A stretch of DNA of 59,850 nt from an uncultured Erysipelotrichaceae bacterium (lineage in GTDB: Bacteria; Bacillota_I; Bacilli_A; RF39; UBA660), in contig CACYRE010000004.1 in assembly GCA_902776735.1 (NCBI GenBank), forward strand, positions 1 through 59,850. Direction: 5' to 3'. Within the stretch, counting starts at the first letter, position 1; each line of letters starts with the position of its first letter. The position numbers and the translations under genes are program-made. The notes under the pieces are model-generated. The model made no database searches. It was not told where the DNA came from and worked only from the letters and a program-made list of their open reading frames with translations. This document shows positions 14,809 to 33,036 of this stretch, one piece after another.

Positions 14809-14911
14809 GCGTGGTAAGATATATCACGCCGATTATCTCTCACGATTTAATGTGAGAGTATATTCAACCGAACCCCCTGAAGACCTAGTCGTGAGACTAG
14901 GTCACTTTTTT
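14809..14911 (+). ncRNA. Candidate about 100-nt small RNA whose 3' part carries the island attachment core
   Basis: Hairpins GCGTG...CACGC and CTCTCAC-GATTTAAT-GTGAGAG are followed by a single-stranded stretch CCGAACCCCCUGAAGA. A 9-bp terminator GACCTAGTC-GTGA-GACTAGGTC plus a T-run closes it. Confidence 0.4.
14872..14883 (+). repeat. att core copy 1 (ACCCCCTGAAGA), attL of island 1
   Basis: The identical 12-mer recurs at 20785-20796 and 33025-33036, all in direct orientation. Confidence 0.7.
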
Positions 14912-14940
14912 AGGAATTTAAGACTTAAAAATTTATAATT

Positions 14941-14962
14941 TAGGTTCTATTTTAGGTTCTAT
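14941..14962 (+). repeat. Island 1 left arm-type repeat (TAGGTTCTAT x2)
   Basis: TAGGTTCTATTTTAGGTTCTAT. The same tandem pair is present at 20659-20680. Confidence 0.7.
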
Positions 14963-14984
14963 TTTTTTGAAAAAATTAAAAAGA

Positions 14985-16088
14985 TTAGTACAAAGTATTC
15001 ATTATTTTGACTATATCTTCCATTTTATTTTTGAATAGATGAGAGTATGTGTTTAGGGTCTCATCTATTTTTGTATGTCCTAAATATTTTGCAACTATCA
15101 TGATATTTGCTCCATTATTAATAAGAAGTGAAGCACAAGAGTGTCTGAAGTCATGTAGTCTTATTGGTTTTACTCCAGATTTACTAGCTAGAAGATTTTT
15201 TCTAACTCTCATTCTTTCTTGAGTAATGGGTTTAACATCTCCAAATACATACCATTTATTATTAAATCCAAAATACTTTTTACAATTACTCTTTAGAATC
15301 TTTAAATCATCTGCAAGTGTTTGAGTAAGTGGTATAGTTCTAACACTTTTTTTACTTTTTGGAGTTGTTACATAAACTTTACCATCGACTGTGACTACAT
15401 TTTTCTTAACAGATAAAGTCATTTCTTCAAAATTAATATTATCCCATGTAAGACCTCTTAATTCTCCTAGTCTTAATCCACAAAAATATAAAACTTCAAA
15501 TGCTGATTTAAATAGAATTTCATCTTCGTATGATATGAATTGTTTAAATTCTTCTAGAGTATAGAATTCCATTTCTTTTGGTAAAGCATTGGGATCTACA
15601 AACTTTTCCATTTTATTATATATTTGTGTAAAATTGAAATCATGCCATCTAGTTCCATAATTAAGAATCTCTTTAAAGAATTTATGATATCCATTTTTAG
15701 TTTTAATAGCACAATCTCTTTTAGACATCCATCTTCTCCAAGACAAGTAATGATTAATATCAAAATCTTTAATTTTTACATTATGAATCGGCTCTAGAGA
15801 ATTAATTCTTTCTCGATATGATTTTAAAGTTGTTTCTTTTACTTTATCTGATTTATATTCATAGAATTCTTCATATAATTCAATAAAAGTCATATCGGTA
15901 ATATTAATTTCTTTTCTTCTCATTTTACGAAGTCTATTTGCTTCGGCAACTTGAGCTTCTTTTCTTGTAGCAAATTTTTTTGAATGATATTTTCTTTGTT
16001 TACCGTTTTCATCGAAATAATAAACTTGATAATACCATCTATATCCTTTAGATGTTGCATTCTCTTTAATACATTGGTTAACTGACAT
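14985..16088 (-). CDS. int: Tyrosine recombinase / phage-type integrase (island 1)
   Basis: Motifs FCGLRLGELRGL (Arg), HDFRHSCAS (HxxR), YLGH and LNTYSHL (Tyr). AGGAGG RBS. The protein is collinear with the integrase at 20844-21950. Confidence 0.9.
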   Translation of the reverse strand: MSVNQCIKENATSKGYRWYYQVYYFDENGKQRKYHSKKFATRKEAQVAEANRLRKMRRKEINITDMTFIELYEEFYEYKSDKVKETTLKSYRERINSLEPIHNVKIKDFDINHYLSWRRWMSKRDCAIKTKNGYHKFFKEILNYGTRWHDFNFTQIYNKMEKFVDPNALPKEMEFYTLEEFKQFISYEDEILFKSAFEVLYFCGLRLGELRGLTWDNINFEEMTLSVKKNVVTVDGKVYVTTPKSKKSVRTIPLTQTLADDLKILKSNCKKYFGFNNKWYVFGDVKPITQERMRVRKNLLASKSGVKPIRLHDFRHSCASLLINNGANIMIVAKYLGHTKIDETLNTYSHLFKNKMEDIVKIMNTLY

Positions 16089-16219
16089 TTATAATCCTCC
16101 TTTAATGGTTAAACCAATTTACTAGACCTTTTGCTAATTGAATAATACCATAAAAACAAAAAAAGCAAAACCATTATGTTTTGCCTTTGTCTAGTATAAA
16201 TTGATTTAATAGATTTATT

Positions 16220-16600
16220 TTATTTATATTTATGGGGGTTATCTTTTTTATCTATTATTTCCCATAATTCTTTGTTACTAAAGGTAATATATTTAGCAAT
16301 TAAAAACCCAATATAAGAAACGACTCCCCAAGCGATAATTATAATCAAATATGACAATTTAAAATTAAATAACAAACCTAAAATTGGAACTATTCCTAGT
16401 ATTCCAACTAATATTGGAATCGATAAGAATATTTCTATTACAATTGCTCTAAATCTAGTTCTAAAAGAATACTGCAATTTTTCTTCCCTAGATCTATCTT
16501 TTTTCAATTGCTCATATTCTTCTGATGTTAGAATACGTACTTTATTTTCTTCATTGTTTATTTTTGTTTCCTCTATATTTTTCTTTGTCTTTTTTGCCAT
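16220..16600 (-). CDS. Hypothetical membrane protein (charged N-terminus, about three TM helices)
   Basis: ORF plus RBS AAGGAAG; no recognisable motif. Confidence 0.5.
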   Translation of the reverse strand: MAKKTKKNIEETKINNEENKVRILTSEEYEQLKKDRSREEKLQYSFRTRFRAIVIEIFLSIPILVGILGIVPILGLLFNFKLSYLIIIIAWGVVSYIGFLIAKYITFSNKELWEIIDKKDNPHKYK

Positions 16601-16672
16601 AGCAACACTTCCTTGTTTTAATTATATAATACTTTTATTATCTATTATATATTTATTAAATATAGCAAATAG

Positions 16673-16903
16673 TTATAAATTGGCTAGCCTGTTTAAATAG
16701 TCTATATCGATTTTTAGCCTTTTAACGACCTCACACATTGGAATTAGTCCTTTTGGTAGAATATACCCATTTGCTTCTAATTCTTCCTGTATTTCCTTTT
16801 TTAGCCTATATACGTTGTTATTTCCAAGATTCGATAACTTTTTCAAGTCTTCAATAGTACACCATTGTTTAGATATTAATTCTAATGTTTCTTTAGCTGT
16901 CAT
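16673..16903 (-). CDS. Small island-backbone protein, putative HTH/excisionase-like
   Basis: The start was moved to MTAKETL behind a GGGGGTGAAG RBS. It is collinear with 23560-23796 (shared KQWC..DL.KL, YI.P, IDIDxLxR). Confidence 0.45.
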   Translation of the reverse strand: MTAKETLELISKQWCTIEDLKKLSNLGNNNVYRLKKEIQEELEANGYILPKGLIPMCEVVKRLKIDIDYLNRLANL

Positions 16904-17327
16904 TATCTTCACCCCCAAACTCTTTACAAAAATTATTCATAAATTCTATATCTTCTTGATTAGTTAATGGTTCTATCTCACATCTGTTTCCATTCCATAC
17001 CATAGTTCCATCTTCATCGTATCGAATATGTGGCATAGAAGTATTTAGTTCTTCTATGGAATCACTGATTTGAGTTATTAATATGTAATTATTAATTTTA
17101 TTGTTTTTATCTTTATATGAATTTACATATCCTTTTATAAAGATAAAATTATCTATAAAAAAAAGATCTTTATATTTTTCATAAAGATCTTTGTATGCTC
17201 TTAAACTGATAAAAGCTATTTTATTATTAAATATCTGGTTTTCTATACTTATTGCAATATGTTTTTCATTAATAATAATTGATAGAATTTTTCCAGATAA
17301 AAATATTTCATTTATATAATTATTCAT
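16893..17327 (-). CDS. Island-backbone protein, possibly an OB-fold ssDNA-binding-like protein
   Basis: AGGAGG RBS. It occupies the same backbone position as 23810-24226. The fold assignment is a guess based on its beta-rich N-terminal pattern. Confidence 0.35.
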   Translation of the reverse strand: MNNYINEIFLSGKILSIIINEKHIAISIENQIFNNKIAFISLRAYKDLYEKYKDLFFIDNFIFIKGYVNSYKDKNNKINNYILITQISDSIEELNTSMPHIRYDEDGTMVWNGNRCEIEPLTNQEDIEFMNNFCKEFGGEDNDS

Positions 17328-17444: not shown

Positions 17445-17726
17445 TTACTTTAGTCTTTCATGGCTATAGTTAACAGATATATCTCTTCTTGTTCCATAAT
17501 AATCATATCTTATAGATATATAATTTTGATCCTTTAATTCTTTGATTAATCTAGTTATTGTTCTTGCTGATAAATCTAATGTTCTAGCATATTTAGCATT
17601 ACTAGCAAAAGCAACTTTATAGTCATTATTACTAAAAGATATGATTACACCTAATAAAAGTTTAGCTGATGATGTTATACTTTCATCACTTAATACTTCC
17701 ATAGGTATTCTAATAAACTTTTCCAT
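17445..17726 (-). CDS. HTH_36-like (replication/regulatory helix-turn-helix) protein
   Basis: IPMEVLSDESITSSAKLLLGVIISFSN...ASNAKYARTLDLSARTITRLIKELKDQNYI matches the PF13730-type pattern. GGAAGGAGG RBS. Confidence 0.55.
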   Translation of the reverse strand: MEKFIRIPMEVLSDESITSSAKLLLGVIISFSNNDYKVAFASNAKYARTLDLSARTITRLIKELKDQNYISIRYDYYGTRRDISVNYSHERLK

Positions 17727-17888
17727 ATTTTTCCTCCTTCCTAAAAAATTGCACAAAAAAAGCAGTGATTTCTCACTGCGTATATTATTGATTAACTAGT
17801 ATCATATTTCATGTTTAAACCTCCTTATGAAAATTCGGGGATAGGGGTGTCCCCATATAGTGTTTGTTGTGTCATTGAAAAAAAGCAC

Positions 17889-17957
17889 TACAAATACGTT
17901 GCTTGTTTGTTTTCTCTATAAAAAAATTTTTTTTAATAAGCAAGCAACGTATTTGTA
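17889..17957. repeat. 17-bp perfect inverted repeat around a 35-nt A/T-only spacer (candidate origin or operator)
   Basis: TACAAATACGTTGCTTG (17889-17905) and CAAGCAACGTATTTGTA (17941-17957). Confidence 0.7.
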
Positions 17958-18523
17958 TACCCAAATGAAACATTTTGTCTATCCTAATACAATATGGGTG
18001 ATCCCAACCCCCAAACAAAAAAGGTAGAAGTTGTTCTTCTACCATTAATTATTCAGAGTATAAATATAAGGAAAATATCTCCATATCTATGACAATTGTT
18101 CCTTATTATAATCATTTTAACACTTGACAAATTTAATGCAATAGCAAAAAAGTATCAATTTTGTATCAAAAAAGTATCACTTTTCTAAACCGATGATTTT
18201 TAATGCCATTTAGAAAATAAAATGTATTGAAAATATATCTACTATAGATAATTATTCCTTATTATAACCATTATAAATCCTTAATATATTGAAAAGCAAG
18301 GTTGAATTTAGGGTTGAAAAAAGTGACGAAAAAGGTGGCGTTTTTAAGTGACTAAAAAGTTAATTTTGCCTTTATATTATAATGGTTTATGAAATTTGTT
18401 AAATGGTGCAATTAAGAGTAATATTCAGTAGCATTAGTAAAATCATCAATTTTTTTAATGTTACTTTTAGGTGATTTATATAATGTTATGTTATAATTTA
18501 TTATAAGAAATGGGTGGTATTAT

Positions 18524-19309
18524 ATGGCTTATTATAGTAACAGACAAATTAATAAGATAGTAAAAGATGTAATAGACAATTATTGCCCTCCTTCAACATA
18601 TAAAAATAAAATGCCAACTAAAGAAGAGTTTTCTATACAAAATATAGATATAGACAAAATTGAAAAAGAGTATAATTCTTTTGATAAAAAAAAGAATGCT
18701 ATTGAAACTTTCTTGGGTGTCGCTTGGTTTGCTCTTGGAGGAATTCCAGCTGGATATGTCTCTGTATATATTTGTGAAGCAATGAATCTTAGTACGGATT
18801 CATTTATTCCAATAATCATTTTTATGGCTTTATATTTTTTAGGGTTTGGAGTTATAGGATTAACAGATTATATAAAATATAATAAAAAGGAAGAATATGA
18901 GAATATAAAAAAATATAAGGAAGCAATGAGTCAATACTATTGGTGGCAAAATAGAAAGAAAAAGGATTTTTGGTATTCTTTGGATGGCCGAAAGTTTGAA
19001 ATTGAAATTGCAAATATTTTTAAGAAAATTGGATATAAGACTAAAATATGTAAGCAAGGTGGAGATGAGGGAGTAGATATAGAAATAGAAAAAAATGGTA
19101 ACAAGGAAATAATACAATGTAAGGCTCACAAGGCAAAAGTATCACCATCAGTTGCTAGAGATCTGCTTGGTACAATGTTAAATAAAAAAGTTAATCATGC
19201 TTATTTGGTAACATTAAATGGAGGTACAGCTGGAACTATTGATTTTTGCAAAAAGAACAACATTACTTTATGGGATATAGATGACATTATTAGATATAAT
19301 AAAATGTAA
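18524..19309 (+). CDS. Membrane-anchored Mrr-type (PD-D/ExK) restriction endonuclease-domain protein
   Basis: Two TM helices (FLGVAWFALGGIPAGYVSVYI and IPIIIFMALYFLGFGVIGL). The C-terminus FEIEIANIFKKIGYKTKICKQGGDEGVDIEIEKNGNKEIIQCKAHK fits the Mrr_cat pattern. Confidence 0.7.
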   Translation: MAYYSNRQINKIVKDVIDNYCPPSTYKNKMPTKEEFSIQNIDIDKIEKEYNSFDKKKNAIETFLGVAWFALGGIPAGYVSVYICEAMNLSTDSFIPIIIFMALYFLGFGVIGLTDYIKYNKKEEYENIKKYKEAMSQYYWWQNRKKKDFWYSLDGRKFEIEIANIFKKIGYKTKICKQGGDEGVDIEIEKNGNKEIIQCKAHKAKVSPSVARDLLGTMLNKKVNHAYLVTLNGGTAGTIDFCKKNNITLWDIDDIIRYNKM

Positions 19310-19342
19310 TCTATATTAATTATTTGTATGGAGGTGATAGTA

Positions 19343-20650
19343 ATGAGAAAATATGAGTTACAATTTGATGATGAAAGTATTAAAGATACTATCCACTCTA
19401 ATACTTTAAATAGAAACGATAAACTATTTAATTTAATAAGATTATTAAATAGTATGAATGAAAATCATATTATTTCTATTGATGGTAGCTGGGGAAGTGG
19501 GAAGACTTTTTTTATAAAGCAGCTTATGTATTTAAAAAGTAATCACAATGATTGTGCTTTCATAAAGCAAGATATCCATGATACTATTACTGAATTTGAT
19601 AAAAAATATATATTGGTTTATTATAATGCTTGGGAAAATGATGATCATAATGATCCATTAGAATCGATTATTTACAATTTGCTAAATATTTTACCAAAGT
19701 ATTCAGATACGTTTATTGATGGTACAGAACTATTTGATTTAATAAAAAAATCGTGGATGAATTTTATTGAAGTATCATCCTTAGGAATTGTTAAAACTGA
19801 TGATATCAAAGAAATGAAAACTTTTTCTGATTTGTCAGACTCAGTTAATACAATAGAGGAAAAGAAAAATGCTGTTTTAACATTATTAAGCCATATTACT
19901 AGGCATAAAAGAATTCTTTTAATAATTGATGAATTGGATAGATGTAAACCTGATTTTGCTGTTAAATTAATTGAGACTATAAAACATTTTTATGATAGTC
20001 CTAAAATGAGTACAATTTTTGTTACAAATAATAATCAATTATCTAAGACAATAAAAAAATTTTATGGTAATGAATTTGATGGATATAGTTATTTAAATAA
20101 AATATACGATGCAGTTATACCTTTACATTCTGATAACATTGAACAATACTCTAAAAAGTATTTAGATATTTATCATAGTACTAATCTTCCTGAAGATGTT
20201 TCTATTTTTTTATTTAAACACTATAATTTCTCATATCGTGAATGCAATAAATATATGTCCATGTATAGGTTGATTGAACCATATATCCAGTGGCATGGGA
20301 AGTTTCCCCAACATAATAGCAATATTGATATTTCGTGTATATTTGTTCCTATATCTATAGCGCTAAAGGTAAAAGATATCTATTTATATGAAAAGTTTAT
20401 ACAAAATGATGGTTCGGATATCTTAAAAGAACTCTTTGATGATGATAAATTAAAAAGTGAGAATAGTAATTTATATAGATGGTTTTGTGAAATCTTCAAA
20501 GTTAAAGAAGGAATGGAATTATCTAATAGAGTTGCTAATAGATATAAAGAAATATTTATTTCAGATAATACCTATGATTATGGTAAATATCCTTATATGG
20601 AAGCAATATCTATGTTAGGTAATCTTATTCATATTGAAGATGATAAATAA
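19343..20650 (+). CDS. KAP-family P-loop NTPase (no TM insertion)
   Basis: IDGSWGSGKTFFIKQL (Walker A), YNAWENDDHNDPLESII, and LLIIDELDRCKPDFAVKLIETIKHF (Walker B/KAP signature). It lies 33 nt downstream of the Mrr gene. GGAGGTGA RBS. Confidence 0.8.
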   Translation: MRKYELQFDDESIKDTIHSNTLNRNDKLFNLIRLLNSMNENHIISIDGSWGSGKTFFIKQLMYLKSNHNDCAFIKQDIHDTITEFDKKYILVYYNAWENDDHNDPLESIIYNLLNILPKYSDTFIDGTELFDLIKKSWMNFIEVSSLGIVKTDDIKEMKTFSDLSDSVNTIEEKKNAVLTLLSHITRHKRILLIIDELDRCKPDFAVKLIETIKHFYDSPKMSTIFVTNNNQLSKTIKKFYGNEFDGYSYLNKIYDAVIPLHSDNIEQYSKKYLDIYHSTNLPEDVSIFLFKHYNFSYRECNKYMSMYRLIEPYIQWHGKFPQHNSNIDISCIFVPISIALKVKDIYLYEKFIQNDGSDILKELFDDDKLKSENSNLYRWFCEIFKVKEGMELSNRVANRYKEIFISDNTYDYGKYPYMEAISMLGNLIHIEDDK

Positions 20651-20658: not shown

Positions 20659-20680
20659 TAGGTTCTATTTAGGTTCTATA
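20659..20680 (+). repeat. Island 1 right arm-type repeat (TAGGTTCTAT x2)
   Basis: TAGGTTCTATTTAGGTTCTATA, located 104 nt before att core copy 2. Confidence 0.7.
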
Positions 20681-20784: not shown

Positions 20785-20796
20785 ACCCCCTGAAGA
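20785..20796 (+). repeat. att core copy 2 (junction of island 1 and island 2)
   Basis: ACCCCCTGAAGA. The extended match AAATCG(CG)ACCCCCTGAAGAG is shared with copy 3. Confidence 0.7.
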
Positions 20797-20797
20797 G

Positions 20798-20820
20798 TTT
20801 ACATTAACTTTTACATTAAC
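20798..20820 (+). repeat. Island 2 left arm-type repeat (TTTACATTAAC x2)
   Basis: TTTACATTAACTTTTACATTAAC; the same sequence is at 32896-32918. Confidence 0.7.
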
Positions 20821-20843: not shown

Positions 20844-21950
20844 TTAACTTAAATTATCCATAGTTTTTACTATCTCATCCATTTTATTTTTAAATAGGTG
20901 AGAATAGGTATTTAATGTTTCATCAATCTTAGCATGACCTAGATATTTTGCAACAATCATAATACTTGCACCATTATTTATTAAAACTGAAGCACATGAG
21001 TGTCTAAAGTCATGGATTCTTATTTGCTTAACACCAGATTCTTGAGTATATTTATTTTTCTGATGTCTTAATATATGAGCTGATAAAGGTTCTTTATCTC
21101 CAAATACAAACCATTTTTGATTAAAGCCGTATTGTTTCTTATCTCTTAAATATAATTCATGTAGATCTTTCATGACTCTTTCTGGAACTGGTAATGTTCT
21201 AACACTGGTTCTAGTTTTGGGAGTGGTAACATAACATTTGCCTCCTTCACCTTCTTGAACAACATTTTTAACCACCGAGAGCTCTCTATTAAAGAAATCT
21301 ATATTATCCCAGCTTAGACCTCTTAATTCACCTCTACGAAGGCCACAAAAGTATAATACTTCAAATAATGCTTTCCATTTAATATCATCTATTACTGATA
21401 AGAATTGTTTAAATTCTTCCCAAGTATAGAATTGCATTTCTTTTGGTGGCTTGTTTGGATTACTAAACTTTTCCATTTTGTTATAAATAGAAGTGAAGTT
21501 AAAATCATGCCATTTAGTTCCATAATTAAGAATAGTCTTCAATAATTTATAATATCCATTCTTAGTTTTATCAGCTAGATCTAATGTACCGATTCTCTTT
21601 CTCCAAGCAATATAGTGTTCTAACTTAATATCTTTAATCTTTAGTTCATAGAATTCACTTAATTCTTTAATATTAACTCTATATGTTCTTAAAGTAGATG
21701 TTTTAACTTTATCTTTCTTATACTCATAAAATTCTTCATAGAGTTGTTTAAATGTCATTCCAGTAACATTTATTTCTTTAGTTTCATATCCTACTAAGAA
21801 ATCTCTTTCTGCTTTTAAAGCTTCATTTCTAGTCATATAACTTCTAGACATATATGGTTTGGTTTTACCATCAACCTTTATCTTGTCATAAAAATACCAT
21901 CTTCTACCATCTTTGGTAGCTCTTTCTTTTGGTAACTGTAATACAGCCAT
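20844..21950 (-). CDS. int: Tyrosine recombinase / phage-type integrase (island 2)
   Basis: Motifs FCGLRRGELRGL, HDFRHSCAS, YLGH and LNTYSHL. Long runs are identical to the island 1 integrase (LYEEFYEYK, WHDFNFT, IYNKMEKF, IMIVAKYLGH, KIDETLNTYSHLFKNKM). Confidence 0.9.
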   Translation of the reverse strand: MAVLQLPKERATKDGRRWYFYDKIKVDGKTKPYMSRSYMTRNEALKAERDFLVGYETKEINVTGMTFKQLYEEFYEYKKDKVKTSTLRTYRVNIKELSEFYELKIKDIKLEHYIAWRKRIGTLDLADKTKNGYYKLLKTILNYGTKWHDFNFTSIYNKMEKFSNPNKPPKEMQFYTWEEFKQFLSVIDDIKWKALFEVLYFCGLRRGELRGLSWDNIDFFNRELSVVKNVVQEGEGGKCYVTTPKTRTSVRTLPVPERVMKDLHELYLRDKKQYGFNQKWFVFGDKEPLSAHILRHQKNKYTQESGVKQIRIHDFRHSCASVLINNGASIMIVAKYLGHAKIDETLNTYSHLFKNKMDEIVKTMDNLS

Positions 21951-22131: not shown

Positions 22132-22452
22132 TTATGAAACCCATGCCCATAATCTTATTCCGTAAAACAAATCAAATTCTTCACCAGTTACTTTGACCAT
22201 TTTATTATCTTCTGAAGATTCTTTTGACATATAATATTTTACTTTTAGTTTATAGCCTAAACTAAAATATTCAAAGTTAATTTCTTCACCTGGTTCTAAA
22301 CAAGATATACAATATTTAGTTCTACCTAAAACTATTAGTGGTTTACTTCCATTATTAAATTTTAATCTTATACTTTCTTCACAAATAAAAATGGTAAATG
22401 TGCATACTAGTATCAATACAATTATACTTATTATTTTAAATGCTTTTTTCAT
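22132..22452 (-). CDS. Hypothetical small secreted or membrane-anchored protein
   Basis: N-terminal signal/TM sequence MKKAFKIISIIVLILVCTF; no recognisable motif. Confidence 0.45.
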   Translation of the reverse strand: MKKAFKIISIIVLILVCTFTIFICEESIRLKFNNGSKPLIVLGRTKYCISCLEPGEEINFEYFSLGYKLKVKYYMSKESSEDNKMVKVTGEEFDLFYGIRLWAWVS

Positions 22453-22488
22453 AAATTCACCTCACCTCAGTACCTCAAAACATTGCAA

Positions 22489-25054: not shown

Positions 25055-25198
25055 TCCATATTTTACTATATTTTATCACTATTAAATATTATTACAAGTG
25101 GTGAATTATATAGGTGTTTTGGGGGTGGAATTTCTTCATTTTTACCTTATAATTCCACTATTTTACAATATTTTATCACAACTAGAGATATTTACAAG
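25055..25198 (+). repeat. Two imperfect direct repeats of about 44 bp with a period of about 100 bp
   Basis: TCCATATTTTACTATATTTTATCAC...ATTACAAG (25055-25098) and TCCACTATTTTACAATATTTTATCAC...TTTACAAG (25154-25198). Confidence 0.6.
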
Positions 25199-25374
25199 AG
25201 GCCTTTGAACACCCCTCTAGGGGGTACTATTTTTGATTTAAGCCCTTATTTTATAAGGACATATTAAAAATATTAAATATATTTTTTTATAAAATAAAAA
25301 TGGATTTAATAGTCAAATAGTGATAAAAAATGTCGAAATTATGTTATAATCATATATAGAAAGGTAGTGTTGTT

Positions 25375-26910
25375 ATGAAAAAATATACAATTGATAACTA
25401 TATAATTGATATTGATAAATATGGTTTGAAAAAAACATGGCATACAATACTATCAAAAACATTAAATAACACATTTAATTCTGATATTTTCAATATTAGT
25501 AATTATGGTGAATTATATGAAATAGGTTTAGAACATGTAAATAAGATTAGCAAAAAAGAAATGGGTAAGTATTACACTCCGAGAGATGTTTCAAATGTAA
25601 TGTCTAATTGGTTAGCACCATTAAAAGGGGATAATGTTTGTGATGTAGGATGTGGAGCTGGAAATTTAATACTATCTTATCTTGATAACTTAAATAAAAG
25701 TGATGCAATTAGATTAATAAGTAATGGAAATATATATTTGTACGATCTTGATGATATTGCACTAGAAATATGCAAATATTCAATTGCTATAAAATATGGT
25801 AAAGAGTACTTAAGAAAAATACATGCTAAACATTGTGATTTTTTAGATAAAGATATTAAATTACCTAAGAATGCAAAAGTAATATCTAATCCACCATATT
25901 ATAAAATAATAGAGGATGGAAAGAATTGGAAAATTACTAATGTAATATCCGATTCTAGAGAATTATATTCTGCATTTATTGAGAAGATTATAACTCAAAG
26001 TGATTCATCTGTTATTATTACTCCGTACAGTTTTATTGGTAGTGGTAAATTTTATTCGTTAAGAAAAGTAATGAATAAGTATAATGGTTTTGTTGTTTCA
26101 TTTGATAATGTTCCTGGAAATATATTTAATGGAAGAAAACATGGAATTTTTAATTCTAATAAAGGTAATTCAGTTCGTGCAGCAATTACAGTTGTTGAAA
26201 ACAGAGACAATGTTAAAGGATTTAGATTCAGCCCATTAATCAGATTTAAAACTGAGGAAAGAAATAAAATGTTAGATAATAATGTTTTATATTCTTTAAT
26301 AAATGATAGATATCAAATAGTTGATTCTAGACACAAAGCATATTATAAATGTCATTCAGATCTATTAAGTATCCTTGACGCTTGGGAGCAAAAATCTGAT
26401 AAAAAAATGAGTAATTTAATTGAACAAAATGACGGAAATGAAATATATTTACCAACAACATGCAGATATTTTACTGTAGGATCTAAGAGAAATTTATTAA
26501 GAGATGGTAAAAGAGTAATTAAAGTTAAAAATAAAAATACATACAATTATGTCTATTGTATGATGAATTCTACTTTTGCATATTGGTATTGGCGATTGTA
26601 TGATGGTGGAATAAATTGTCCATTAACTATTATTAATACTATTCCTGTATTTTTAGATCTATTTAATGAAAAACAATTAAATAAAATGAATTCTTTAGCA
26701 GAAGAAATGCAAAGTAAAGAAAAAGAGTATTTGGTTTATAAAGTAAATGCTGGTAAAAAACAAGAGAACATTAAATTTCCTAAAAAGTATAGAAATGAAA
26801 TTAATAAGCTATTCTTTGATGTATTGGAAATTGATAAAAACATTAGTGTGTTGAATAAAATACATAGTAGTTCTTTATTTGAAGAAAGTGAGAGTGAAGA
26901 GAATGAATAA
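25375..26910 (+). CDS. Gamma-class N6-adenine DNA methyltransferase with its own target-recognition region
   Basis: Motifs YYTPRDV, VCDVGCGAGNL (motif I) and VISNPPYY (motif IV). Confidence 0.85.
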   Translation: MKKYTIDNYIIDIDKYGLKKTWHTILSKTLNNTFNSDIFNISNYGELYEIGLEHVNKISKKEMGKYYTPRDVSNVMSNWLAPLKGDNVCDVGCGAGNLILSYLDNLNKSDAIRLISNGNIYLYDLDDIALEICKYSIAIKYGKEYLRKIHAKHCDFLDKDIKLPKNAKVISNPPYYKIIEDGKNWKITNVISDSRELYSAFIEKIITQSDSSVIITPYSFIGSGKFYSLRKVMNKYNGFVVSFDNVPGNIFNGRKHGIFNSNKGNSVRAAITVVENRDNVKGFRFSPLIRFKTEERNKMLDNNVLYSLINDRYQIVDSRHKAYYKCHSDLLSILDAWEQKSDKKMSNLIEQNDGNEIYLPTTCRYFTVGSKRNLLRDGKRVIKVKNKNTYNYVYCMMNSTFAYWYWRLYDGGINCPLTIINTIPVFLDLFNEKQLNKMNSLAEEMQSKEKEYLVYKVNAGKKQENIKFPKKYRNEINKLFFDVLEIDKNISVLNKIHSSSLFEESESEENE

Positions 26911-28090
26911 AAAAGAAGCAATTAGTGAATTAATTAATACTATTTATAATAATAATTCTGATCTAATACTTTCAGAAAGTGATATAAAAAGATTAAATAA
27001 CTTTTTCAAAGAAGTTGATCAATTCAGTAAACAATTTGATGCATTTTTAGAGGAAAATTCTGAAAAAACAAAAGGAATTTCTAAATTAAAAAGTGGCAAA
27101 TATGAAATGGAAAAACAGTATAATCAAAATAGAGCATTACAACCAGGTATTTTATCTGAATGTAATTATGTTGAAACTTTAGCTAAAATATTTAATTTGA
27201 ATAAATGTTTAGATTTTGATAGGACTCCAATGAATCAAGTTCCAATTGAATGTAGAAATTATCTTAACTCTGGATATCAGACATTTTCAGCAGCAAGATA
27301 TTTGTACTATAGTACAAAAAATCCCGATATATTTATATTTCAATATGGTAATCCTGCAAACGGTGATGCTGAAATAATCATCAATGGGAATAAGGTTAGA
27401 CTAGAATTCAAAGAAAGAAATGCCAAAGCAGGGGAATATGATATTACAGGATTGTATGATGATGAAGGTAAGCTGTTGATTTCTGATGATTTTAGAAAAA
27501 ACACTCCAGAATATATTCCTTTTATTGAGAAATTTAATAACGAAACAAATGTAATAGAACAAATTGGTCATAATTATAATGACTTTGATGATGAAACAAA
27601 AGTTTTGTCTGTTATGGAATATTTTGCAAGACATGACATTGATGCTATTGTTTCATCAACTTCAAATAATGAATTAGTTGTACTAACACCTGAATGTGTA
27701 AAAATAGAATTACCAGATGGTAGAAGGATAATTACGACAGAGAATAGTGAAATAAGAACATCAGGAAGAAATCACAGAAAAATATTTACCAAAAATTTAT
27801 TTATGAATGTCCTAGACCAAATGAATGCTGTAGAGATAGATAAAGATAAATATGAAGTGTCACTAGACAATGAATTAGTAGAAATAGTAAATGGTCGTGG
27901 CACAAGTACACCTAGTAGAATTAAATTCAATAAAGTGTTTTTTGTGGATATTAATGATGCTATCATTGAAAATGATAAAGTTGTATTTAATATTAACGAT
28001 GTTGAGCAATTAAAACCATCAATCTCTATGCATATAAAAATTAATGCAACAAAGGATGAATTAAAGGATTATTTTGAAAAGAAAGATTAG
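26903..28090 (+). CDS. Putative cognate restriction endonuclease (PD-ExK-like)
   Basis: ATG 26903 overlaps the methyltransferase stop by 8 nt. NGDAEIIINGNKVRLEFKERNAK fits D-x13-ExK. There is no other recognisable motif. Confidence 0.45.
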   Translation: MNKKEAISELINTIYNNNSDLILSESDIKRLNNFFKEVDQFSKQFDAFLEENSEKTKGISKLKSGKYEMEKQYNQNRALQPGILSECNYVETLAKIFNLNKCLDFDRTPMNQVPIECRNYLNSGYQTFSAARYLYYSTKNPDIFIFQYGNPANGDAEIIINGNKVRLEFKERNAKAGEYDITGLYDDEGKLLISDDFRKNTPEYIPFIEKFNNETNVIEQIGHNYNDFDDETKVLSVMEYFARHDIDAIVSSTSNNELVVLTPECVKIELPDGRRIITTENSEIRTSGRNHRKIFTKNLFMNVLDQMNAVEIDKDKYEVSLDNELVEIVNGRGTSTPSRIKFNKVFFVDINDAIIENDKVVFNINDVEQLKPSISMHIKINATKDELKDYFEKKD

Positions 28091-28107
28091 AGATGTAGGT
28101 GCTATTT

Positions 28108-28740
28108 ATGAATAATGAATACGGGTATATATATGTTTATAAGTGTATGGTAGGATCTGGTTCTGATGTTTGTAAAATTGGAATTACAAAAAATTATCAA
28201 GAAAGATTAAAAGACCATGTAAGAAGACCATATCATGGTTTTGTACCTTATGCTGAATTTACAACTGGAAAGGCAATTGCAACAGTATTTAAAATAAGCA
28301 ATTTTTCTTTTGCTGATAAGTACATTAAAGAATTGTTCAGTAACTATCAATTTGGGAATTATGAAATATATAATGTTGATTATGATGAAACAATAAAAAA
28401 ACTATATTTTGGTTTAAAAGATAGAAATGCCTTTGTTGAATTAATTGAAGACGGATATAGTTTATATGATTTTGCAGTTGATGAATCAAGGCAAGAATCA
28501 GATACTACAACAAAAAAAGATTTTGAATTAATAAAAGAACAAATCATTGATAGGTATAATGACAACTTACCAGAAGAATTACTATTGATGCTAAGAGATA
28601 AGAATGATTTTAAAGAAAACTGTAAATCACATTATAATACTGGTAATTATATTTGCTTCAGTACCAATATGATTTTGGATTTAAATTACAACAAAGAAAA
28701 GAGAATTGAAATTTTAAAAAAGCTTAAAAAATTTGTTTAA
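28108..28740 (+). CDS. T5orf172 / GIY-YIG-like domain protein
   Basis: YGYIYVYKCMVGSGSDVCKIGITKNYQERLKDH matches the T5orf172 (PF10544-type) N-terminal pattern. Confidence 0.6.
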   Translation: MNNEYGYIYVYKCMVGSGSDVCKIGITKNYQERLKDHVRRPYHGFVPYAEFTTGKAIATVFKISNFSFADKYIKELFSNYQFGNYEIYNVDYDETIKKLYFGLKDRNAFVELIEDGYSLYDFAVDESRQESDTTTKKDFELIKEQIIDRYNDNLPEELLLMLRDKNDFKENCKSHYNTGNYICFSTNMILDLNYNKEKRIEILKKLKKFV

Positions 28741-28745
28741 AAATA

Positions 28746-28779
28746 ACCAGACGTGAAAAAATATCTGGTTTTATTTTTC
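28746..28779 (+). terminator. Terminator separating the RM/T5orf172 unit from the downstream block
   Basis: ACCAGA-N12-TCTGGT followed by TTTATTTTT. Confidence 0.5.
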
Positions 28780-28866
28780 AATATTAATATATATATGAAT
28801 CATAAAAAAAGACTATCAATTTATAAATATAGTAATCATGGTATAATGGTATTGAATGGAGGATCT

Positions 28867-30078
28867 ATGAACAGTAAGAAAATTATAAAGATAAGTATAG
28901 ATAGAAATAAATTTATTAATGTAGATGGTTCACTAGATTTAACTAGTAGAGTTCTTGAAATCTATATTGCTTTTAATAAATTTGAAGAAGCCTTTAATTT
29001 CCCCACTAGAGAATTATTTTTACATCCTGAAAAAATCAATGAGAATAAAGTAATATATGTTGTTGATGAAAATGGAACATATTATAGTTGTTTTAATTGC
29101 ATATTTGGTTTTAAATATAATGATCCATTACAAATATATTCATCCCCAATTGATTTCATTATAGAAAATGCAATAAGTGATACTAATAACATAAATGTAG
29201 ATAAGATTATCTTTAAGACATCATTACCAAGAAAATATTCTTTATATATTTTAAATATGCATATCAAATACACAAGAACAAAAGATATTTTTATAAATAA
29301 ATCCTTTGACAATGATAAAATGATTATTGAATATTCTATAACAAGTAATAAAAAAACAGAATATAAGAAATTATCTGAGATTATGTATTCTTTGCTTGAA
29401 TTGTCTTTTTTATGTCTAGGTGATATACCTAAAATTGAAAAAGTAAGTGTATATGGTGAAAATGCAATGAATTACTATTTTGCATGTGCACCAAAATATA
29501 TTCAAAGAGCTAATATATATAGTTCTAGCACAAATGGCGTTTTAGCATGTATAGAGCCAGGAACTATTTCTAGCAATTTAGTAAAAGATTTTATTAAATT
29601 TAGAAAAAATACTAAAATATTATTTGATTTGTTAATGATTCACATGAATGGCGATGGTTACTTAGAAATGACCAATTCAATGTTAGTTCAATTGTTAGAA
29701 GGTTTCTATAAAACAAATAATCCTGGTACAAATAAAGAACTACGTGAAATATTAGATTTTTATTATATTCAAAATCCTGTAATAAAAACATTATTGGTTA
29801 GAAGAGATTTAAAAAAAGCAGGAGATGTTCATAATACACCGATCTTTTTACTAAAAGCAAAAGAACATAGACATTATCTATCTCATTTAAATATGAATGA
29901 ATCAAAAAAAGTGTTCTTCCAATTAGAAAATAATTATGCATATTGGAAATTATGCCATGGGTTAAGGATATATATTATGCAAATTATTTCGTTGCCTATT
30001 AATATTGAGGAATATGATAAATTTAAAAATTCAGTTGAAAAATGGGCAAAAAGTCATAGATTAAGATATAAAAAATAA
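28867..30078 (+). CDS. Unknown 403-aa protein (gene A), weakly ApeA/HEPN-like
   Basis: GGAGG RBS lies before ATG 28867, and an extended -10 TGGTATAAT lies at 28840-28848. The C-terminal helical part contains KEHRHYLSH (Rx4H). The N-terminal part is beta-rich. Confidence 0.6.
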   Translation: MNSKKIIKISIDRNKFINVDGSLDLTSRVLEIYIAFNKFEEAFNFPTRELFLHPEKINENKVIYVVDENGTYYSCFNCIFGFKYNDPLQIYSSPIDFIIENAISDTNNINVDKIIFKTSLPRKYSLYILNMHIKYTRTKDIFINKSFDNDKMIIEYSITSNKKTEYKKLSEIMYSLLELSFLCLGDIPKIEKVSVYGENAMNYYFACAPKYIQRANIYSSSTNGVLACIEPGTISSNLVKDFIKFRKNTKILFDLLMIHMNGDGYLEMTNSMLVQLLEGFYKTNNPGTNKELREILDFYYIQNPVIKTLLVRRDLKKAGDVHNTPIFLLKAKEHRHYLSHLNMNESKKVFFQLENNYAYWKLCHGLRIYIMQIISLPINIEEYDKFKNSVEKWAKSHRLRYKK

Positions 30079-30124
30079 TTGTTTGGAAAAAGTTAATGCA
30101 AATGTGATATAATATTCATAGTTG

Positions 30125-30155
30125 AGATATCATTAATATGATATCTTTTTCTTTT
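30125..30155 (+). terminator. Terminator/attenuator-like hairpin between gene A and gene B
   Basis: AGATATCAT-TAAT-ATGATATCT followed by TTTTTCTTTT. It lies downstream of an extended -10 (TGATATAAT, 30105-30113) and 18 nt upstream of ATG 30173. Confidence 0.5.
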
Positions 30156-30172
30156 CATTAAAGGAGGTTATT

Positions 30173-31414
30173 ATGTATAAGATAGATTTAAATCCTGATG
30201 TAGCAACTTACTTTAGAAATACCATAAATGAATATATTAATTTATCTATGAAACATGAATATAAGCACAGAAATAAGAAATTGGAAAATTCTTGGAATTC
30301 TATATGTTCCATTATGGATAGAATTGATGATTTGGTATATTATTTAAATCAAAAGGAATTAAATAACGGATTATGGAAAAATTGTGCTTTTGATTTTTTC
30401 GAATTTATTGAGCAAGCTGGAGTATTAGTTAGCTGTATTGATGATGCATTTGCAATATATAATGTTCAATTTCCACATCATAATGTTATTTTTAAATCAA
30501 AGAAGCTAAACCCTAATGTTACAATTACAAAGAACACATGTGAGCTTGATGATTCTTACTTTATGTATATAAGATCTCTAAGTTCGGTTCATCCAAGTGA
30601 TACATCACATCATAAGGAGTTTCAAGAAGCGGATTTTGAAGTGAGCCCATATGTTGTCTGGAATAAAGGAGTTTTAACTTTAAATAATCCAAATGCTGAT
30701 TTAGTTCTTGTATCATATAATAATGAAACTTCTGATTTTTTAACAAACAAAGGTGTCATTATTGATGAAATATTTAATTACATTAAATACAAATATTATT
30801 CTTTGAATTATTTATCTAAAAAAATAGCAATTCACTATAAACAAATAATTGCCAATTTTAGATTATCAAAAATAAAAAAGTCACCAGAATTTGGTGATTA
30901 TGTTAAATATTTAAATAATTTAAAGGAAGAAGCATTGAAAAGAAATCCCGATATGGAATGTGAAATTCAAGAATTCATAGATATTTTTAATTTAAAAATA
31001 ACAAACAAAAATAATGAAATAAAGTTTGAGAAATATAAGAATGCATTAAAGTATGCAATACAGTCATTTCATAGGCAACTTCAAAACATGGATTTTAACT
31101 GTAGATCACCCTTTGATAGATTAATTGGAGAATTATTGTTAGGAGAAATCTATTTTAAAGATGATAACTATCATTATCCTTTAAGTAAAATATTATACTT
31201 GAAAGATGCAACAGGTGATAAAAATTTTGGATTAAGTATGTATAAATGTTTGTTAGGTGTATTTGAAAAATATGTCGATGTATCAGAAGAGGATTTATAT
31301 CAACTAGATTACTACGAATTATATGTTTTATCGCAAATAGCATTATATTTTCATGCATTAGATTATGATAATGACATTAGTAGGTATATTCCAAGCCAAG
31401 ATATGTATAGATAG
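30173..31414 (+). CDS. Unknown 413-aa protein (gene B)
   Basis: AAGGAGG RBS. The only motif noticed is YIRSLSSVHPSD (Rx5H). Confidence 0.6.
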   Translation: MYKIDLNPDVATYFRNTINEYINLSMKHEYKHRNKKLENSWNSICSIMDRIDDLVYYLNQKELNNGLWKNCAFDFFEFIEQAGVLVSCIDDAFAIYNVQFPHHNVIFKSKKLNPNVTITKNTCELDDSYFMYIRSLSSVHPSDTSHHKEFQEADFEVSPYVVWNKGVLTLNNPNADLVLVSYNNETSDFLTNKGVIIDEIFNYIKYKYYSLNYLSKKIAIHYKQIIANFRLSKIKKSPEFGDYVKYLNNLKEEALKRNPDMECEIQEFIDIFNLKITNKNNEIKFEKYKNALKYAIQSFHRQLQNMDFNCRSPFDRLIGELLLGEIYFKDDNYHYPLSKILYLKDATGDKNFGLSMYKCLLGVFEKYVDVSEEDLYQLDYYELYVLSQIALYFHALDYDNDISRYIPSQDMYR

Positions 31415-31424
31415 GGGGGATATA

Positions 31425-32279
31425 GTGAATACAAGTAATTATGTAAAGAAAATTAATGATTATAAAAAATGCATGAAAGTATTAGAATGTGCACATAGAA
31501 TTTATATAGATGAAATTGATAATTTTGAATTCAAAAAAATAAGTAAATATAATAAGTCAAGAAATATGTATAATAAAATATCAACTGATTTTAAGGTGGT
31601 AAACTATTTAATTGAAAAAGAAGATTTATTTAATGCTGCCACAGTACTTAGAACTTTATATGAGAATATAATATACATAATTGCAACCTCATATGATAAA
31701 AAAATGATTGTAACATTGGATACTACGCCTAAAGAATTGAGAAAAATTTTAGAAGATAATTGTAATGTTATATTTACTGATTATTTTGAAAAAGAAGACT
31801 TTAATAGTATATATAAATACTTGTGTAAAATAGTACATCCAAGTAGTATGAAGGAACTTGTTTCATACCTAGTTAATACAATTAAGTATAAATCATATAT
31901 GATTAATAATTTAAAGTATATGATGATTGTTGTTGAATACATGTATTTAAATTATCTCAACAAAAAAATTAAAAATGAAGATAATAAGTTTGATTTAAAT
32001 TTTGTTGATTGTTGTACATATATTAATCTAGTCAATATTAGCTATTATATAATAAGTATTAAAAATAGTACTAATAGTATAAAGAGATTTATGTACTATG
32101 ATACAAAAAATAAATATGTAGAAGAAAACATGAAGATATGTGAACAATTATCTGTTGAACTTAAAAATAATAAAAATAGTATAGAAAAAAATATAAAAGA
32201 GTTAACTAGAGAATTAGATTTGCAAATTAATGAAAGCAAATATAAAGAATTAGTTAGCACTATTTTAAAAAACAAATAG
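31425..32279 (+). CDS. Unknown 284-aa protein (gene C)
   Basis: GTG 31425 lies 5 nt after a GGGGGG RBS and 10 nt after the gene B stop. It is helical, and LRTLYENIIYIIA...LCKIVHPSS vaguely recalls AbiV/DUF5677-type proteins. Confidence 0.5.
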   Translation: MNTSNYVKKINDYKKCMKVLECAHRIYIDEIDNFEFKKISKYNKSRNMYNKISTDFKVVNYLIEKEDLFNAATVLRTLYENIIYIIATSYDKKMIVTLDTTPKELRKILEDNCNVIFTDYFEKEDFNSIYKYLCKIVHPSSMKELVSYLVNTIKYKSYMINNLKYMMIVVEYMYLNYLNKKIKNEDNKFDLNFVDCCTYINLVNISYYIISIKNSTNSIKRFMYYDTKNKYVEENMKICEQLSVELKNNKNSIEKNIKELTRELDLQINESKYKELVSTILKNK

Positions 32280-32287
32280 GAGATTAT

Positions 32288-32776
32288 ATGGATAACTTTG
32301 AACAAGAATATAATAAATTGAATGAGGTTTCTAAAATGGCAGTTAATGCGTATAGAAGTGGTCGGCAGTTTATGATGACTGGAATACACACTTCTGGAGC
32401 TGGCATAGTAGTTAATAGCAGGCTGTATCCAACTATTATTGCCTCAGTTGTTAATGAAGTGTTTGCATGTGAATTGTTTCTTAAATCCATGATAATGATT
32501 AAAACTGGTGAAAAATCAATAAAAAAACATAAATTATTAGAATTATATGATTTGCTTGGCATTGAAACAATCGAAAAAAGCTTATCAAAATATGATTTTA
32601 AAGATGAGCTACAAAAGATAAGCGATTCATTCATTACATGGCGTTATTGTTATGAATATGGCACAATTGTTATTAATAGGGGATTTGTATTTGAATTATG
32701 TAATGTTTTAGAAAATGAAAATAAAAAAATAATTTTTAAAGAATATAATCTTAATATGGATCAATCGTTTATCTAA
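32288..32776 (+). CDS. Unknown 162-aa protein (gene D), HEPN-like helical pattern
   Basis: TAGGAGA RBS; the start is 8 nt after the gene C stop. The pattern is VFACELFLKSMI...KKHKLLELYDLL...WRYCYEYG. Confidence 0.5.
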   Translation: MDNFEQEYNKLNEVSKMAVNAYRSGRQFMMTGIHTSGAGIVVNSRLYPTIIASVVNEVFACELFLKSMIMIKTGEKSIKKHKLLELYDLLGIETIEKSLSKYDFKDELQKISDSFITWRYCYEYGTIVINRGFVFELCNVLENENKKIIFKEYNLNMDQSFI

Positions 32777-32830
32777 TTTATGTAACAAAACAAAAAAACA
32801 AAAATCATATCTAACTTTTAACACATTATA

Positions 32831-32872
32831 AAAATATGTTAAAAAAATATTAAAATTTTAACATATTTTTTA
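32831..32872 (+). terminator. Terminator after the four-gene block
   Basis: AAAATATGTTAAAA-N13-TTTTAACATATTTT, a 14-bp stem plus a T-run. Confidence 0.6.
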
Positions 32873-32895
32873 TTGAAATTTTATAATATTTTGCT

Positions 32896-32918
32896 TTTAC
32901 ATTAACTTTTACATTAAC
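32896..32918 (+). repeat. Island 2 right arm-type repeat (TTTACATTAAC x2)
   Basis: TTTACATTAACTTTTACATTAAC, located 106 nt before att core copy 3. Confidence 0.7.
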
Positions 32919-33024
32919 ACCCATACAAATTTTGATAAACTGTGATAAATTGATAAGACTCACAAAACCTTATTTTATAAGTAATTTAAACTTTTGTATA
33001 AGAGATAACTCGTCTAAAAAATCG

Positions 33025-33036
33025 ACCCCCTGAAGA
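33025..33036 (+). repeat. att core copy 3 (attR of island 2, probably the displaced native sRNA 3' end)
   Basis: ACCCCCTGAAGA is followed by GAGCCCGAAAGTGCTC and a T-run, forming a terminator-like hairpin. Confidence 0.65.

Follow-up and report, generated by a model that had tools for sequence, protein, structure and literature searches.

The DNA analysed here is a stretch of 59,850 nt (referred to below as the window) from an uncultured rumen Erysipelotrichaceae bacterium, and all island positions are those of this whole stretch. Past the recG gene, the window contains a predicted small RNA (sRNA) gene, designated sRNA-1, which is followed by two intervals that each open with a tyrosine integrase gene, and then by the left end of a third element. 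As a whole, the locus is very probably best explained as two related integrative islands (5.9 and 12.2 kb) and the stump of a third, inserted in tandem in the 3′ part of the sRNA gene. The features that delimit this array are as follows:

14774..14910, + strand: predicted sRNA-1 gene, the integration target, recognised by promoter and terminator scan, fold, conservation and compensatory changes
14872..14883, + strand: core copy 1, the left attachment site (attL) of island 1, within the invariant single-stranded part of sRNA-1
14941..14962, + strand: putative P′ arm pair of island 1, two copies of TAGGTTCTAT with a 12-bp period, starting 57 nt past core 1
14985..16088, − strand: Int1, tyrosine integrase with PF00589, PF14657 (Arm-DNA-bind_4) and SAM-like domains (phrog_1)
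20659..20679, + strand: putative P arm pair of island 1, two copies of TAGGTTCTAT with an 11-bp period, ending 105 nt ahead of core 2
20785..20796, + strand: core copy 2, the junction of islands 1 and 2; contigs of metagenome runs X4 and X1 pass here from 20797 to 33038 onward
20798..20820, + strand: putative P′ arm pair of island 2, two copies of TTTACATTAAC with a 12-bp period, abutting core 2
20844..21950, − strand: Int2, tyrosine integrase with PF00589 and PF14659
32896..32918, + strand: putative P arm pair of island 2, two copies of TTTACATTAAC, ending 106 nt ahead of core 3
33025..33036, + strand: core copy 3, the right attachment site (attR) of island 2, placed by repeat match and metagenome joints
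33037..34707, + strand: left end of a third element without an integrase, consisting of a degenerate terminator, TAGGTAC twice (33093 and 33105) and AbiEi/AbiEii genes (33246-34707)

The core repeat, the 12-mer ACCCCCTGAAGA, was found by exact search in three copies, all on the + strand, at 14872, 20785 and 33025. None was obtained in 100 shuffles, and the window contains no further copy at one mismatch or fewer. Copies 2 and 3 share a longer match, AAATCG (followed by an additional CG in copy 2) and ACCCCCTGAAGAG, with a 2-nt indel between them. The sequence ACCACCTGAATA at 37897 was considered as a fourth core and rejected, as it has two mismatches, lies within an amylase open reading frame (ORF) and has no arms nearby. 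Both islands are thus bounded by direct target repeats (attL/attR) with an integrase gene at one end, the organisation of a site-specific integrative island.

A lambda-Int-type catalytic domain (PF00589) was detected in both integrases (E=2e-26 for Int1 and 3e-29 for Int2); both are full-length, and the active-site motifs GLRLGE/GLRRGE, HDFRHS and LGH..NTYSH are readable in both translations. The two proteins are 59% identical overall, with values of 40% over amino acids (aa) 1-60, 61% over aa 61-170 and 64% over aa 171-367. The integrases of lambda, HP1, Tn916 and Tn1549 combine an arm-binding N-terminus with a SAM-like core-binding domain and a catalytic domain. Int1 and Int2 resemble lambda-type integrases in this layout, the arm-binding domain being a Pfam match in Int1, and in the direct-repeat putative arms that flank a short core, whereas the arm and core sequences are specific to the present family and the relation is distant. 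The closest solved structure by sequence is likewise distant (PDB 6EMY, 'Int protein', E=7e-11); we take it to be the Tn1549 integrase.

Each island carries a tandem repeat of its own near both ends. Exactly four copies of TAGGTTCTAT (at 14941, 14953, 20659 and 20670) and four of TTTACATTAAC (at 20798, 20810, 32896 and 32908) are present in the window, compared with about 0.2 expected for either sequence, and one pair lies at each island end. The first-pass annotation, made from the letters of this DNA alone, had described the three direct cores, the longer match between copies 2 and 3, a pair of related leftward integrases opening the intervals and these private repeats, all of which were recovered here; of the distances it gave between the right-hand repeats and the following core, 106 nt stands, while 104 nt was counted as 105. 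Beyond the window, 14 elements were shown to associate each Int N-terminus type with its own tandem pair (11-12-bp period), located between the core and the stop codon of the integrase gene, and elements with identical N-termini (L047, L053, L056 and L080) carry the same arm pair, AGATACCAA. TAGGTAC pairs, the type present in the third element, where the pair starts 58 nt past core 3, occur in 14 further loci in one orientation and solely 58-86 nt after or 117 nt before the core. When metagenome contigs were scanned for the TTTACATTAAC pair, 27 were obtained, about 20 of which represent right ends (pair, ~105 nt, core), with different genes before each, and three of which represent left ends (core, terminator, ~50-nt spacer, pair, integrase). 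In lambda-type systems, arm sites usually take the form of direct repeats arranged in tandem and spaced by roughly one turn of the helix. The assignment of the private repeats as putative arm sites (P and P′), with an arm specificity that has diverged between the islands and a core specificity that has not, is well supported by these sequence comparisons, as the first-pass annotation had proposed.

The repeats could instead be bound by the 76-aa helix-turn-helix (HTH)-like protein encoded in each island, acting as an excisionase, or by the HTH_36 protein, or could serve as iterons in replication or transfer. Each island does encode these two small DNA-binding-type proteins, which differ between the islands, and Pfam detects no arm-binding domain in Int2, even though the N-termini of the two integrases can be aligned (40% identity, aa 1-60). 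This explanation is nevertheless rather unlikely: the pairs flank the core on both sides at fixed distances and in one orientation in many elements, they follow the type of Int N-terminus, which is the most diverged part of Int1 and Int2, and Int1 matches PF14657 at 28 bits (cut-off 22.3).

The integration target was characterised by comparison of homologous loci. sRNA-1 has a near-consensus promoter (TTGACA-17-TATGAT, 14774-14802), and its predicted transcript of ~100 nt contains two hairpins, an invariant single-stranded stretch, UAUUCAACCGAACCCCCUGAAG, and a terminator at 14882-14903 (fold z-score −6.2). Scanning around homologues of recG gave 80 loci of uncultured Bacilli from gut and rumen, among them metagenome-assembled genomes (MAGs) labelled Mollicutes or 'Mycoplasma sp. 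CAG:877'. In the set of 81 loci used for conservation counts (L001-L081), the promoter, hairpins and single-stranded stretch were found directly 3′ of recG in about 69, with compensatory changes at 10 of the 13 predicted stem pairs, in both stems. The sequence UUCAACCRAA(A)CCCCCUGAA is invariant across loci, and past CCCCCTGAA the sequence turns hypervariable, indicating that the core marks the end of a seed-like region of an undescribed sRNA gene, the part 3′ of which is exchangeable. The classes of terminator that follow the sRNA-1 core are common to distantly related species. At gathering score, tRNA-His is the only Rfam family that passes in the whole window; the best sub-threshold match of sRNA-1 is RAGATH-32 (17.7 bits, gathering score 41.8), and in E-value mode no Rfam family was assigned to sRNA-1, to either island control region or to the second sRNA-like gene, RNA-2, described below. 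Between recG and sRNA-1 lies a 142-aa ORF (14294-14722, + strand) with its own terminator, for which no Pfam or NCBIfam family was found and an exact-protein look-up gave one short contig; a protein of similar size and position is present in L016. In runs X2 and X5, island 1 has a 23-nt insertion, TTATATCTTTATATATCAATGGG, at 14908, directly past the sRNA terminator, and a sequence resembling it comes after the third core of L023.

Searching other genomes for the integrases and the core showed that the same integrase family recurs behind the same site: related integrases (37-75% identity to Int1 and Int2) are encoded directly 3′ of the sRNA in 19 other loci, representing 19 other species, and two to three copies of CCCCCTGAA follow the sRNA in five loci (L015, L023, L045, L046 and L055). 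In single rumen metagenomes, an identical sRNA sequence runs into several different terminators and contexts; the core followed by the terminator seen at 14884-14910 is preceded in metagenome contigs by several different island-type right ends. Locus L016 has the sRNA followed by genes without an integrase, and its HSP20 and pseudouridine-synthase genes lie 3.8 kb downstream, compared with 24.5 kb in the window. No fewer than eight MAG contigs (L009, L030, L032, L033, L038, L063, L065 and L078) end within 120 nt of the core; across this clade, the hotspot appears to interrupt short-read assemblies in a systematic way.

Occupancy of the site was assessed as mean word depth per part in Logan contigs of bovine and sheep gut metagenomes, which are assembled contigs and drop rare forms. 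Three runs gave the following depths:

Run X1: recG/sRNA 66x; island 1 below 5x over most of its length; island 2 31-35x; right flank (33186-33700) about 60-70x
Run X2: recG/sRNA 43x; island 1 47x
Run X5: recG/sRNA 32x; island 1 9x; island 2 8x; right flank about 10x

From sample to sample, islands 1 and 2 change in depth independently of one another. In run X16, the backbone and control region of island 1 (17464-18245) are present at 22-36x, while its cargo is missing. Furthermore, a 2,726-nt contig of run X4 and a 45-nt contig of run X1 (27x) extend from 20690 and 20768, respectively, to 20797 and continue with CCCGAAAGTGCTCAT, the sequence of the window from 33038 onward. These 20797|33038 joints show that island 2 is absent exactly at the core, indicative of a discrete, core-bounded unit. 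Three direct att copies thus delimit elements of the same core specificity that vary independently, and the tandem accretion at one att site put forward by the first-pass annotation is borne out by the direct cores, each with an integrase-proximal arm, by the hotspot in 19 species, by the other arrays and by these joints. Its end point at 33036 has to be given up, as the integrase-less remnant comes after core 3. The AbiEi/AbiEii toxin-antitoxin pair of this third element was matched by PADLOC (AbiEii, E=8e-98), and its arm region is found in metagenomes with other left contexts at 40-60x depth; a right boundary of the element was not found. Population variants carry a 32-33-nt insertion at 33120-33125 in this stump.

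A number of observations weigh against the interpretation as mobile, stacked islands, in addition to the missing Pfam arm-binding match of Int2. Neither a circular attP junction nor a back-joining contig was seen in the assembled metagenome contigs, the sign of excision that the first-pass annotation had suggested looking for. Its companion suggestion, a search for empty and single-island states, had a divided outcome: the site is alternatively occupied with a boundary at the repeat, as seen from the island-2-less junction, the differing contexts after CCCCCTGAA and the integrase-less L016, but a strictly empty sRNA-core-Z site of the same strain was not found in the assembled contigs of runs X6, X9, X10 and X16. 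The left pair of island 2 abuts core 2, whereas in elements L104, L108 and L121 a terminator and spacer of ~88 nt lie between the two; the X1 copy of island 2 is identical over 20798-33036, with 107 nt on its left that are unlike the window; and a junction-specific search of other runs did not re-find the exact junction 20797|20798. The terminator that follows core 1, which the mechanism proposed below assigns to island 1, is also found elsewhere in attR-like positions and could be either island-borne or native. As to expression of the predicted sRNA-1, which is not demonstrated, several metatranscriptome runs from the rumen gave contigs with sRNA-1 words, and some of these runs had no recG words; this is weak evidence of expression because sRNA-1 is far more conserved than recG. 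Finally, five island 2 cargo proteins, including one of 403 aa, have no family in Pfam, PADLOC or NCBIfam.

Several of these points would fit a fixed composite relic, in which at least island 2 and the third stump no longer excise themselves and the array is a static defence island or moves as a composite. The shortened P′ arm of island 2, the lost integrase of the third element, a regulator gene of island 2 that is split in two ORFs and the lack of circular junctions in assembled contigs speak for such a relic, while both integrases are full-length with active-site motifs, all four arm pairs are perfect copies, the abundance of the two islands varies from sample to sample and, where island 2 is missing, the junction falls precisely at the core. 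On balance, we regard this as a possibility of some weight, albeit a doubtful one. With ~88 nt gone and the junction not confirmed independently, island 2 is possibly immobilised, or the junction is lineage-specific; the left-arm gap is most likely a lineage-specific deletion, which may cripple the independent excision of island 2.

The same junction raises the possibility of a metagenome assembly artefact that joined strains, at least between islands 1 and 2. The organism is known from MAGs only, the polymorphic site breaks many assemblies, and the unrecovered 20797|20798 junction and the different left context of island 2 in X1 would agree with a false join. Such a chimera is, however, very improbable, because the cores have only 12-13 nt in common, too short for a k-mer assembler to bridge, and because a chimera at the core would have retained the terminator and spacer of island 2. 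In addition, 99% of the words sampled from 12170-21000 are present in run X2, where recG and island 1 have even depth, and in run X5 the depth is continuous across 20130-21217.

Behind the integrase, each island contains a small set of homologous genes in the same order and a control region, followed by rightward cargo; accessory genes are also present:

16220..16600, − strand: 126-aa predicted membrane protein, accessory to island 1, from the ORF list, with no significant family match
16673..16903, − strand: 76-aa helical HTH-like protein (backbone gene 2) of island 1, 45% identical to the island 2 copy
16893..17327, − strand: 144-aa OB-like protein (backbone gene 3) of island 1, fold predicted only, with weak homology to 23810-24226
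17445..17756, − strand: HTH_36 protein (backbone gene 4) of island 1 (PF13730, E=1.7e-10), with a probable start ATG at 17726
17757..18523, no strand: control region of island 1 without long ORFs, 767 bp, with terminator-like hairpins and repeats
18524..20650, + strand: island 1 cargo, a membrane-anchored Mrr-like nuclease (18524-19309; PF04471) and a KAP-family NTPase (19328-20650; PF07693)
22132..23510, − strand: accessory genes of island 2, two small membrane proteins and a split XRE-type HTH_3 regulator, from the ORF list and profile matches
23560..24609, − strand: backbone of island 2, HTH-like (23560-23796), OB-like (23810-24226) and HTH_36 (24340-24609) proteins, assigned by homology to island 1 and, for HTH_36, by Pfam
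24610..25374, no strand: control region of island 2, 765 bp, with promoter-like units, minus-strand terminators, a palindrome and repeats
25375..32776, + strand: island 2 cargo (Pfam, PADLOC and NCBIfam scans)

The order of small HTH, OB-like and HTH_36-like genes noted in the first pass is supported by homology between the islands, with identities of 45% (E=3e-22), 26% (E=4e-6) and 39%, respectively; the OB fold itself is represented by a low-confidence model only. The 76-aa HTH-like protein has 78 homologues, all unnamed, and its AlphaFold2 model consists of five helices (pLDDT 96). Neither a model search nor a sequence search returned a match in the PDB, and among viral structures (BFVD) the best TM-scores, 0.63-0.68, were to uncharacterised or HTH phage proteins, for which reason its role as a candidate excisionase or regulator stays a guess from the model. 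The single-sequence AlphaFold2 model of the OB-like protein has low confidence (pLDDT 46), with a beta-beta-beta-alpha-beta-beta order that fits an OB fold, and no family match (Pfam, PHROGs) or PDB sequence match was obtained for it. The island 1 HTH_36 protein resembles the N-terminal DNA-binding domain of DnaD-like and phage replication initiators (PHROGs replication-initiator families). The XRE-type HTH_3 regulator of island 2 (− strand) stops mid-HTH in a first ORF (23510-23307) and continues, with a membrane segment, in a second (23276-22791); it has no island 1 counterpart and is probably frameshifted or a pseudogene.

The regions of 767 and 765 bp between the backbone and the cargo had been described as ORF-less and about 760 bp long; the length holds, whereas the term underdescribes what are control regions with terminators and a mini-ORF. 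In island 1, minus-strand terminator hairpins are found at 17762-17779 and 18023-18043 (five terminator-like sites in the region, compared with 0.3 expected), together with a long inverted repeat (~17886-17960), short direct repeats and a mini-ORF that is preceded by a strong ribosome-binding site. That of island 2 contains a promoter-like 43-nt unit twice (25059 and 25159), TGGGAT repeats, the palindrome TTTTGCACTTGCAAAA at 24770-24785, a covarying terminator and a promoter for the backbone operon, and is 72-91% conserved in seven elements with different cargo (L104, L114 and L129-L133). No similarity was detectable between the control regions of islands 1 and 2. Mini-ORFs of 3-6 codons with a strong ribosome-binding site (MKYDTS and MKT, each before a stop codon) were observed at 17800-17830 and ~24870-24900 (− strand), upstream of the terminator and the HTH_36 gene, an order that from its sequence looks like a leader or attenuator arrangement.

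Neither island encodes a relaxase, primase, helicase, capsid, terminase, tail or lysis protein according to Pfam and PHROGs, several island 2 proteins having no family match at all; the absence of relaxase, capsid and terminase genes had already been remarked on from the translations. Degraded prophages could be considered, seeing that both integrases belong to phrog_1 and the backbone proteins are related to phage families, yet the lack of structural, packaging and lysis genes, the recurrence of a compact four-gene backbone with varied cargo in many genomes and the outcome in IMG/VR, which held no close Int1 relative and no contig with the sRNA core, make a prophage origin highly unlikely. 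Of the earlier view that these are mobilisable islands or satellites rather than prophages, the second half is upheld by the absence of prophage genes; the marker genes that were searched for as features of phage-inducible chromosomal island (PICI)-type satellites and of integrative and mobilisable elements (IMEs) were likewise not found. In Pfam and PHROGs searches, the only replication-type component was the 89-103-aa HTH_36 protein, with no primase or helicase as in the replication module of PICIs and of the Streptococcus thermophilus satellites named StCI; no matches to the packaging and capsid-redirection genes terS, cpm and ppi were obtained, unannotated ORFs remaining in island 2; and no relaxase family match, as expected of an IME, was found.

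The cargo of the islands differs in kind. That of island 1 was assigned by PADLOC to the candidate systems PDC-S02 and PDC-S20, with PifA/QatA-like matches. Island 2 encodes an N6 adenine methyltransferase (25375-26910), the 403-aa protein without a family (26879-28090), which is a possible restriction partner, and a T5orf172/GIY-YIG-like protein (28099-28740); MTase_II was its only PADLOC match. Matches to PADLOC models of anti-phage defence are thus present in both islands and, as AbiEii, in the flank. The four-gene backbone also adjoins recG on a 1.37-Mb contig (L123, 305-8718) and recurs elsewhere with unrelated cargo. In L123, this cargo comprises an N6_N4 methyltransferase and a ResIII helicase, resembling a type III restriction-modification system, and an OLD-like ATPase/TOPRIM protein with a UvrD helicase, resembling Gabija; the element also holds an ISL3 transposase. 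Taken together, gene content supports a cargo that is exchangeable and mostly of the defence type behind a stable backbone. In the proposal of a modular defence-cargo exchange, the exchange is thus backed by the same backbone or ends with other cargo, and the defence nature is only partly shown for island 2.

In the mechanism that we consider to account for these features, the core-binding and catalytic domains of a lambda-type integrase would recombine within CCCCCTGAA(GA), at the end of the invariant single-stranded stretch, while the N-terminal domain would recognise the island-specific pair of tandem 10-11-bp arm sites. In the excised form, the arm sites would lie ~105 nt to the left and ~60 nt to the right of the core. 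Integration would spare the 5′ part and the seed of the sRNA, the incoming island supplying a new terminator, a replacement that may itself be a selected feature, and the displaced old 3′ end would move downstream and become the next landing site. Because the core specificity is shared and the displaced 3′ end stays a target, sibling islands can stack. The conserved module behind the integrase (76-aa HTH-like, OB-like and HTH_36 genes and the ~0.8-kb control region) would persist while the exchangeable cargo turns over behind it. For passage between cells, dependence on a helper (a phage or a conjugative element) or DNA uptake is favoured because no transfer genes are present.

This mode of stacking is itself already known from other bacteria. 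Integration of an element beside a resident with the same att specificity generates internal att sites in arrays of integrative and conjugative elements (ICEs), IMEs and cis-mobilisable elements (CIMEs), and some members decay to cis-mobilisable stumps. The stacking process at the 3′ ends of tRNA and protein genes in those arrays is the same as here, whereas ICEs, IMEs and CIMEs usually have a relaxase, an origin of transfer (oriT) or a conjugation module, none of which was found here, and the target here is an sRNA gene. Such accretion has been reviewed for streptococci and enterobacteria (PMC5704250, PMC5812530) and described at the Asn tDNA of Klebsiella pneumoniae (PMC4891358). The ssrA-specific islands of Dehalococcoides lie in tandem past one small-RNA gene, bounded by repeats of the 3′ end of the gene (McMurdie et al. 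2011, PMC3146451); they have a syntenic reverse-strand integration module at attL, variable cargo and no transfer genes, and are regarded as mobilisable elements that grow by accretion (PMC3146451). They are the closest analogue, sharing with the present islands the tandem stacking, the integration module at attL, the variable cargo and the lack of transfer genes. They differ in having transfer-messenger RNA (tmRNA) as the target, the serine integrase DsiB, a 20-bp repeat and reductive dehalogenase cargo (PMC3146451), whereas the present islands use an sRNA that is neither tRNA nor tmRNA, a tyrosine integrase with putative arm sites and a 12-bp core, and the terminator would be replaced by the incomer.

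The StCI satellites of S. thermophilus are 7-20 kb in size, lack structural genes and can confer phage resistance through accessory genes (PMC13376191). The present islands resemble PICIs, including the Staphylococcus aureus pathogenicity islands (SaPIs) and StCIs, in the integrase at one end, the att repeats, the regulatory and replication-type genes and the small size; unlike them, they lack primase/helicase, terS and capsid-remodelling genes, island 1 has no recognisable master repressor, and island 1 measures 5.9 kb. The iOriTs are att-bounded integrase islands without a relaxase or a mating-pore system and are rich in defence genes (Ares-Arroyo et al., 10.64898/2026.01.13.699239). By likeness to these, the long noncoding stretch of the present islands could hold a candidate oriT. 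To our knowledge, no conjugative element has been described in the RF39-like lineage considered here. The tycheposons that Hackl et al. are said to have found in Prochlorococcus are reportedly small integrase elements with a compact replication and regulation module and swappable cargo, stacked by RNA genes in a streamlined, hard-to-culture host; they reportedly have other integrase and replication genes, target tRNA genes and occur in marine cyanobacteria. Compared with these systems, what is new lies in the sRNA target and its proposed terminator replacement, in the series of Int N-termini matched to arm pairs, and in a minimal backbone found in an uncultured lineage.

Directly upstream of recG lies a second unannotated sRNA-like gene, RNA-2 (11885-12060, − strand), with a promoter (TTGACA-17-TAGTAT), three hairpins, a terminator and a fold z-score of −6.5, and without an Rfam family. 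Across 64 loci its sequence hardly varies, and the stem of its third hairpin covaries. The conserved loop of this hairpin, C(U)UCAGGGGGU, is the reverse complement of the core and sRNA-1 seed, ACCCCCUGA(AG), and by this complementarity sRNA-1 and RNA-2 may form an RNA-RNA pair. In a more far-reaching proposal, which is speculative and probably wrong in this full form, the landing pad would be a working regulatory RNA pair, the islands would have evolved to recombine in the seed of an RNA-RNA interaction that is essential, and the control region would act as a helper-sensing switch. If it were true, location in the seed would guarantee the islands a conserved target; exchange of the 3′ end and terminator could change the stability or dosage of sRNA-1, so that island load would feed back on host regulation; and the ~0.8-kb control region, with small transcripts of its own, would sense the helper.

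The region reveals two conserved predicted RNAs flanking recG that are absent from Rfam. The sets of Int N-termini and arm pairs constitute a natural specificity series and are potential orthogonal integration tools; together with the sRNA target, the 12-bp core and the four-gene backbone, the matched arms make up an integration system defined by sequence for a large group of uncultured gut and rumen Bacilli that lack genetic tools. For the biology of these bacteria, the array means that defence islands, which are known to stack at tRNA and tmRNA genes, do so at an ordinary small-RNA gene as well, where the incoming island would bring the terminator.

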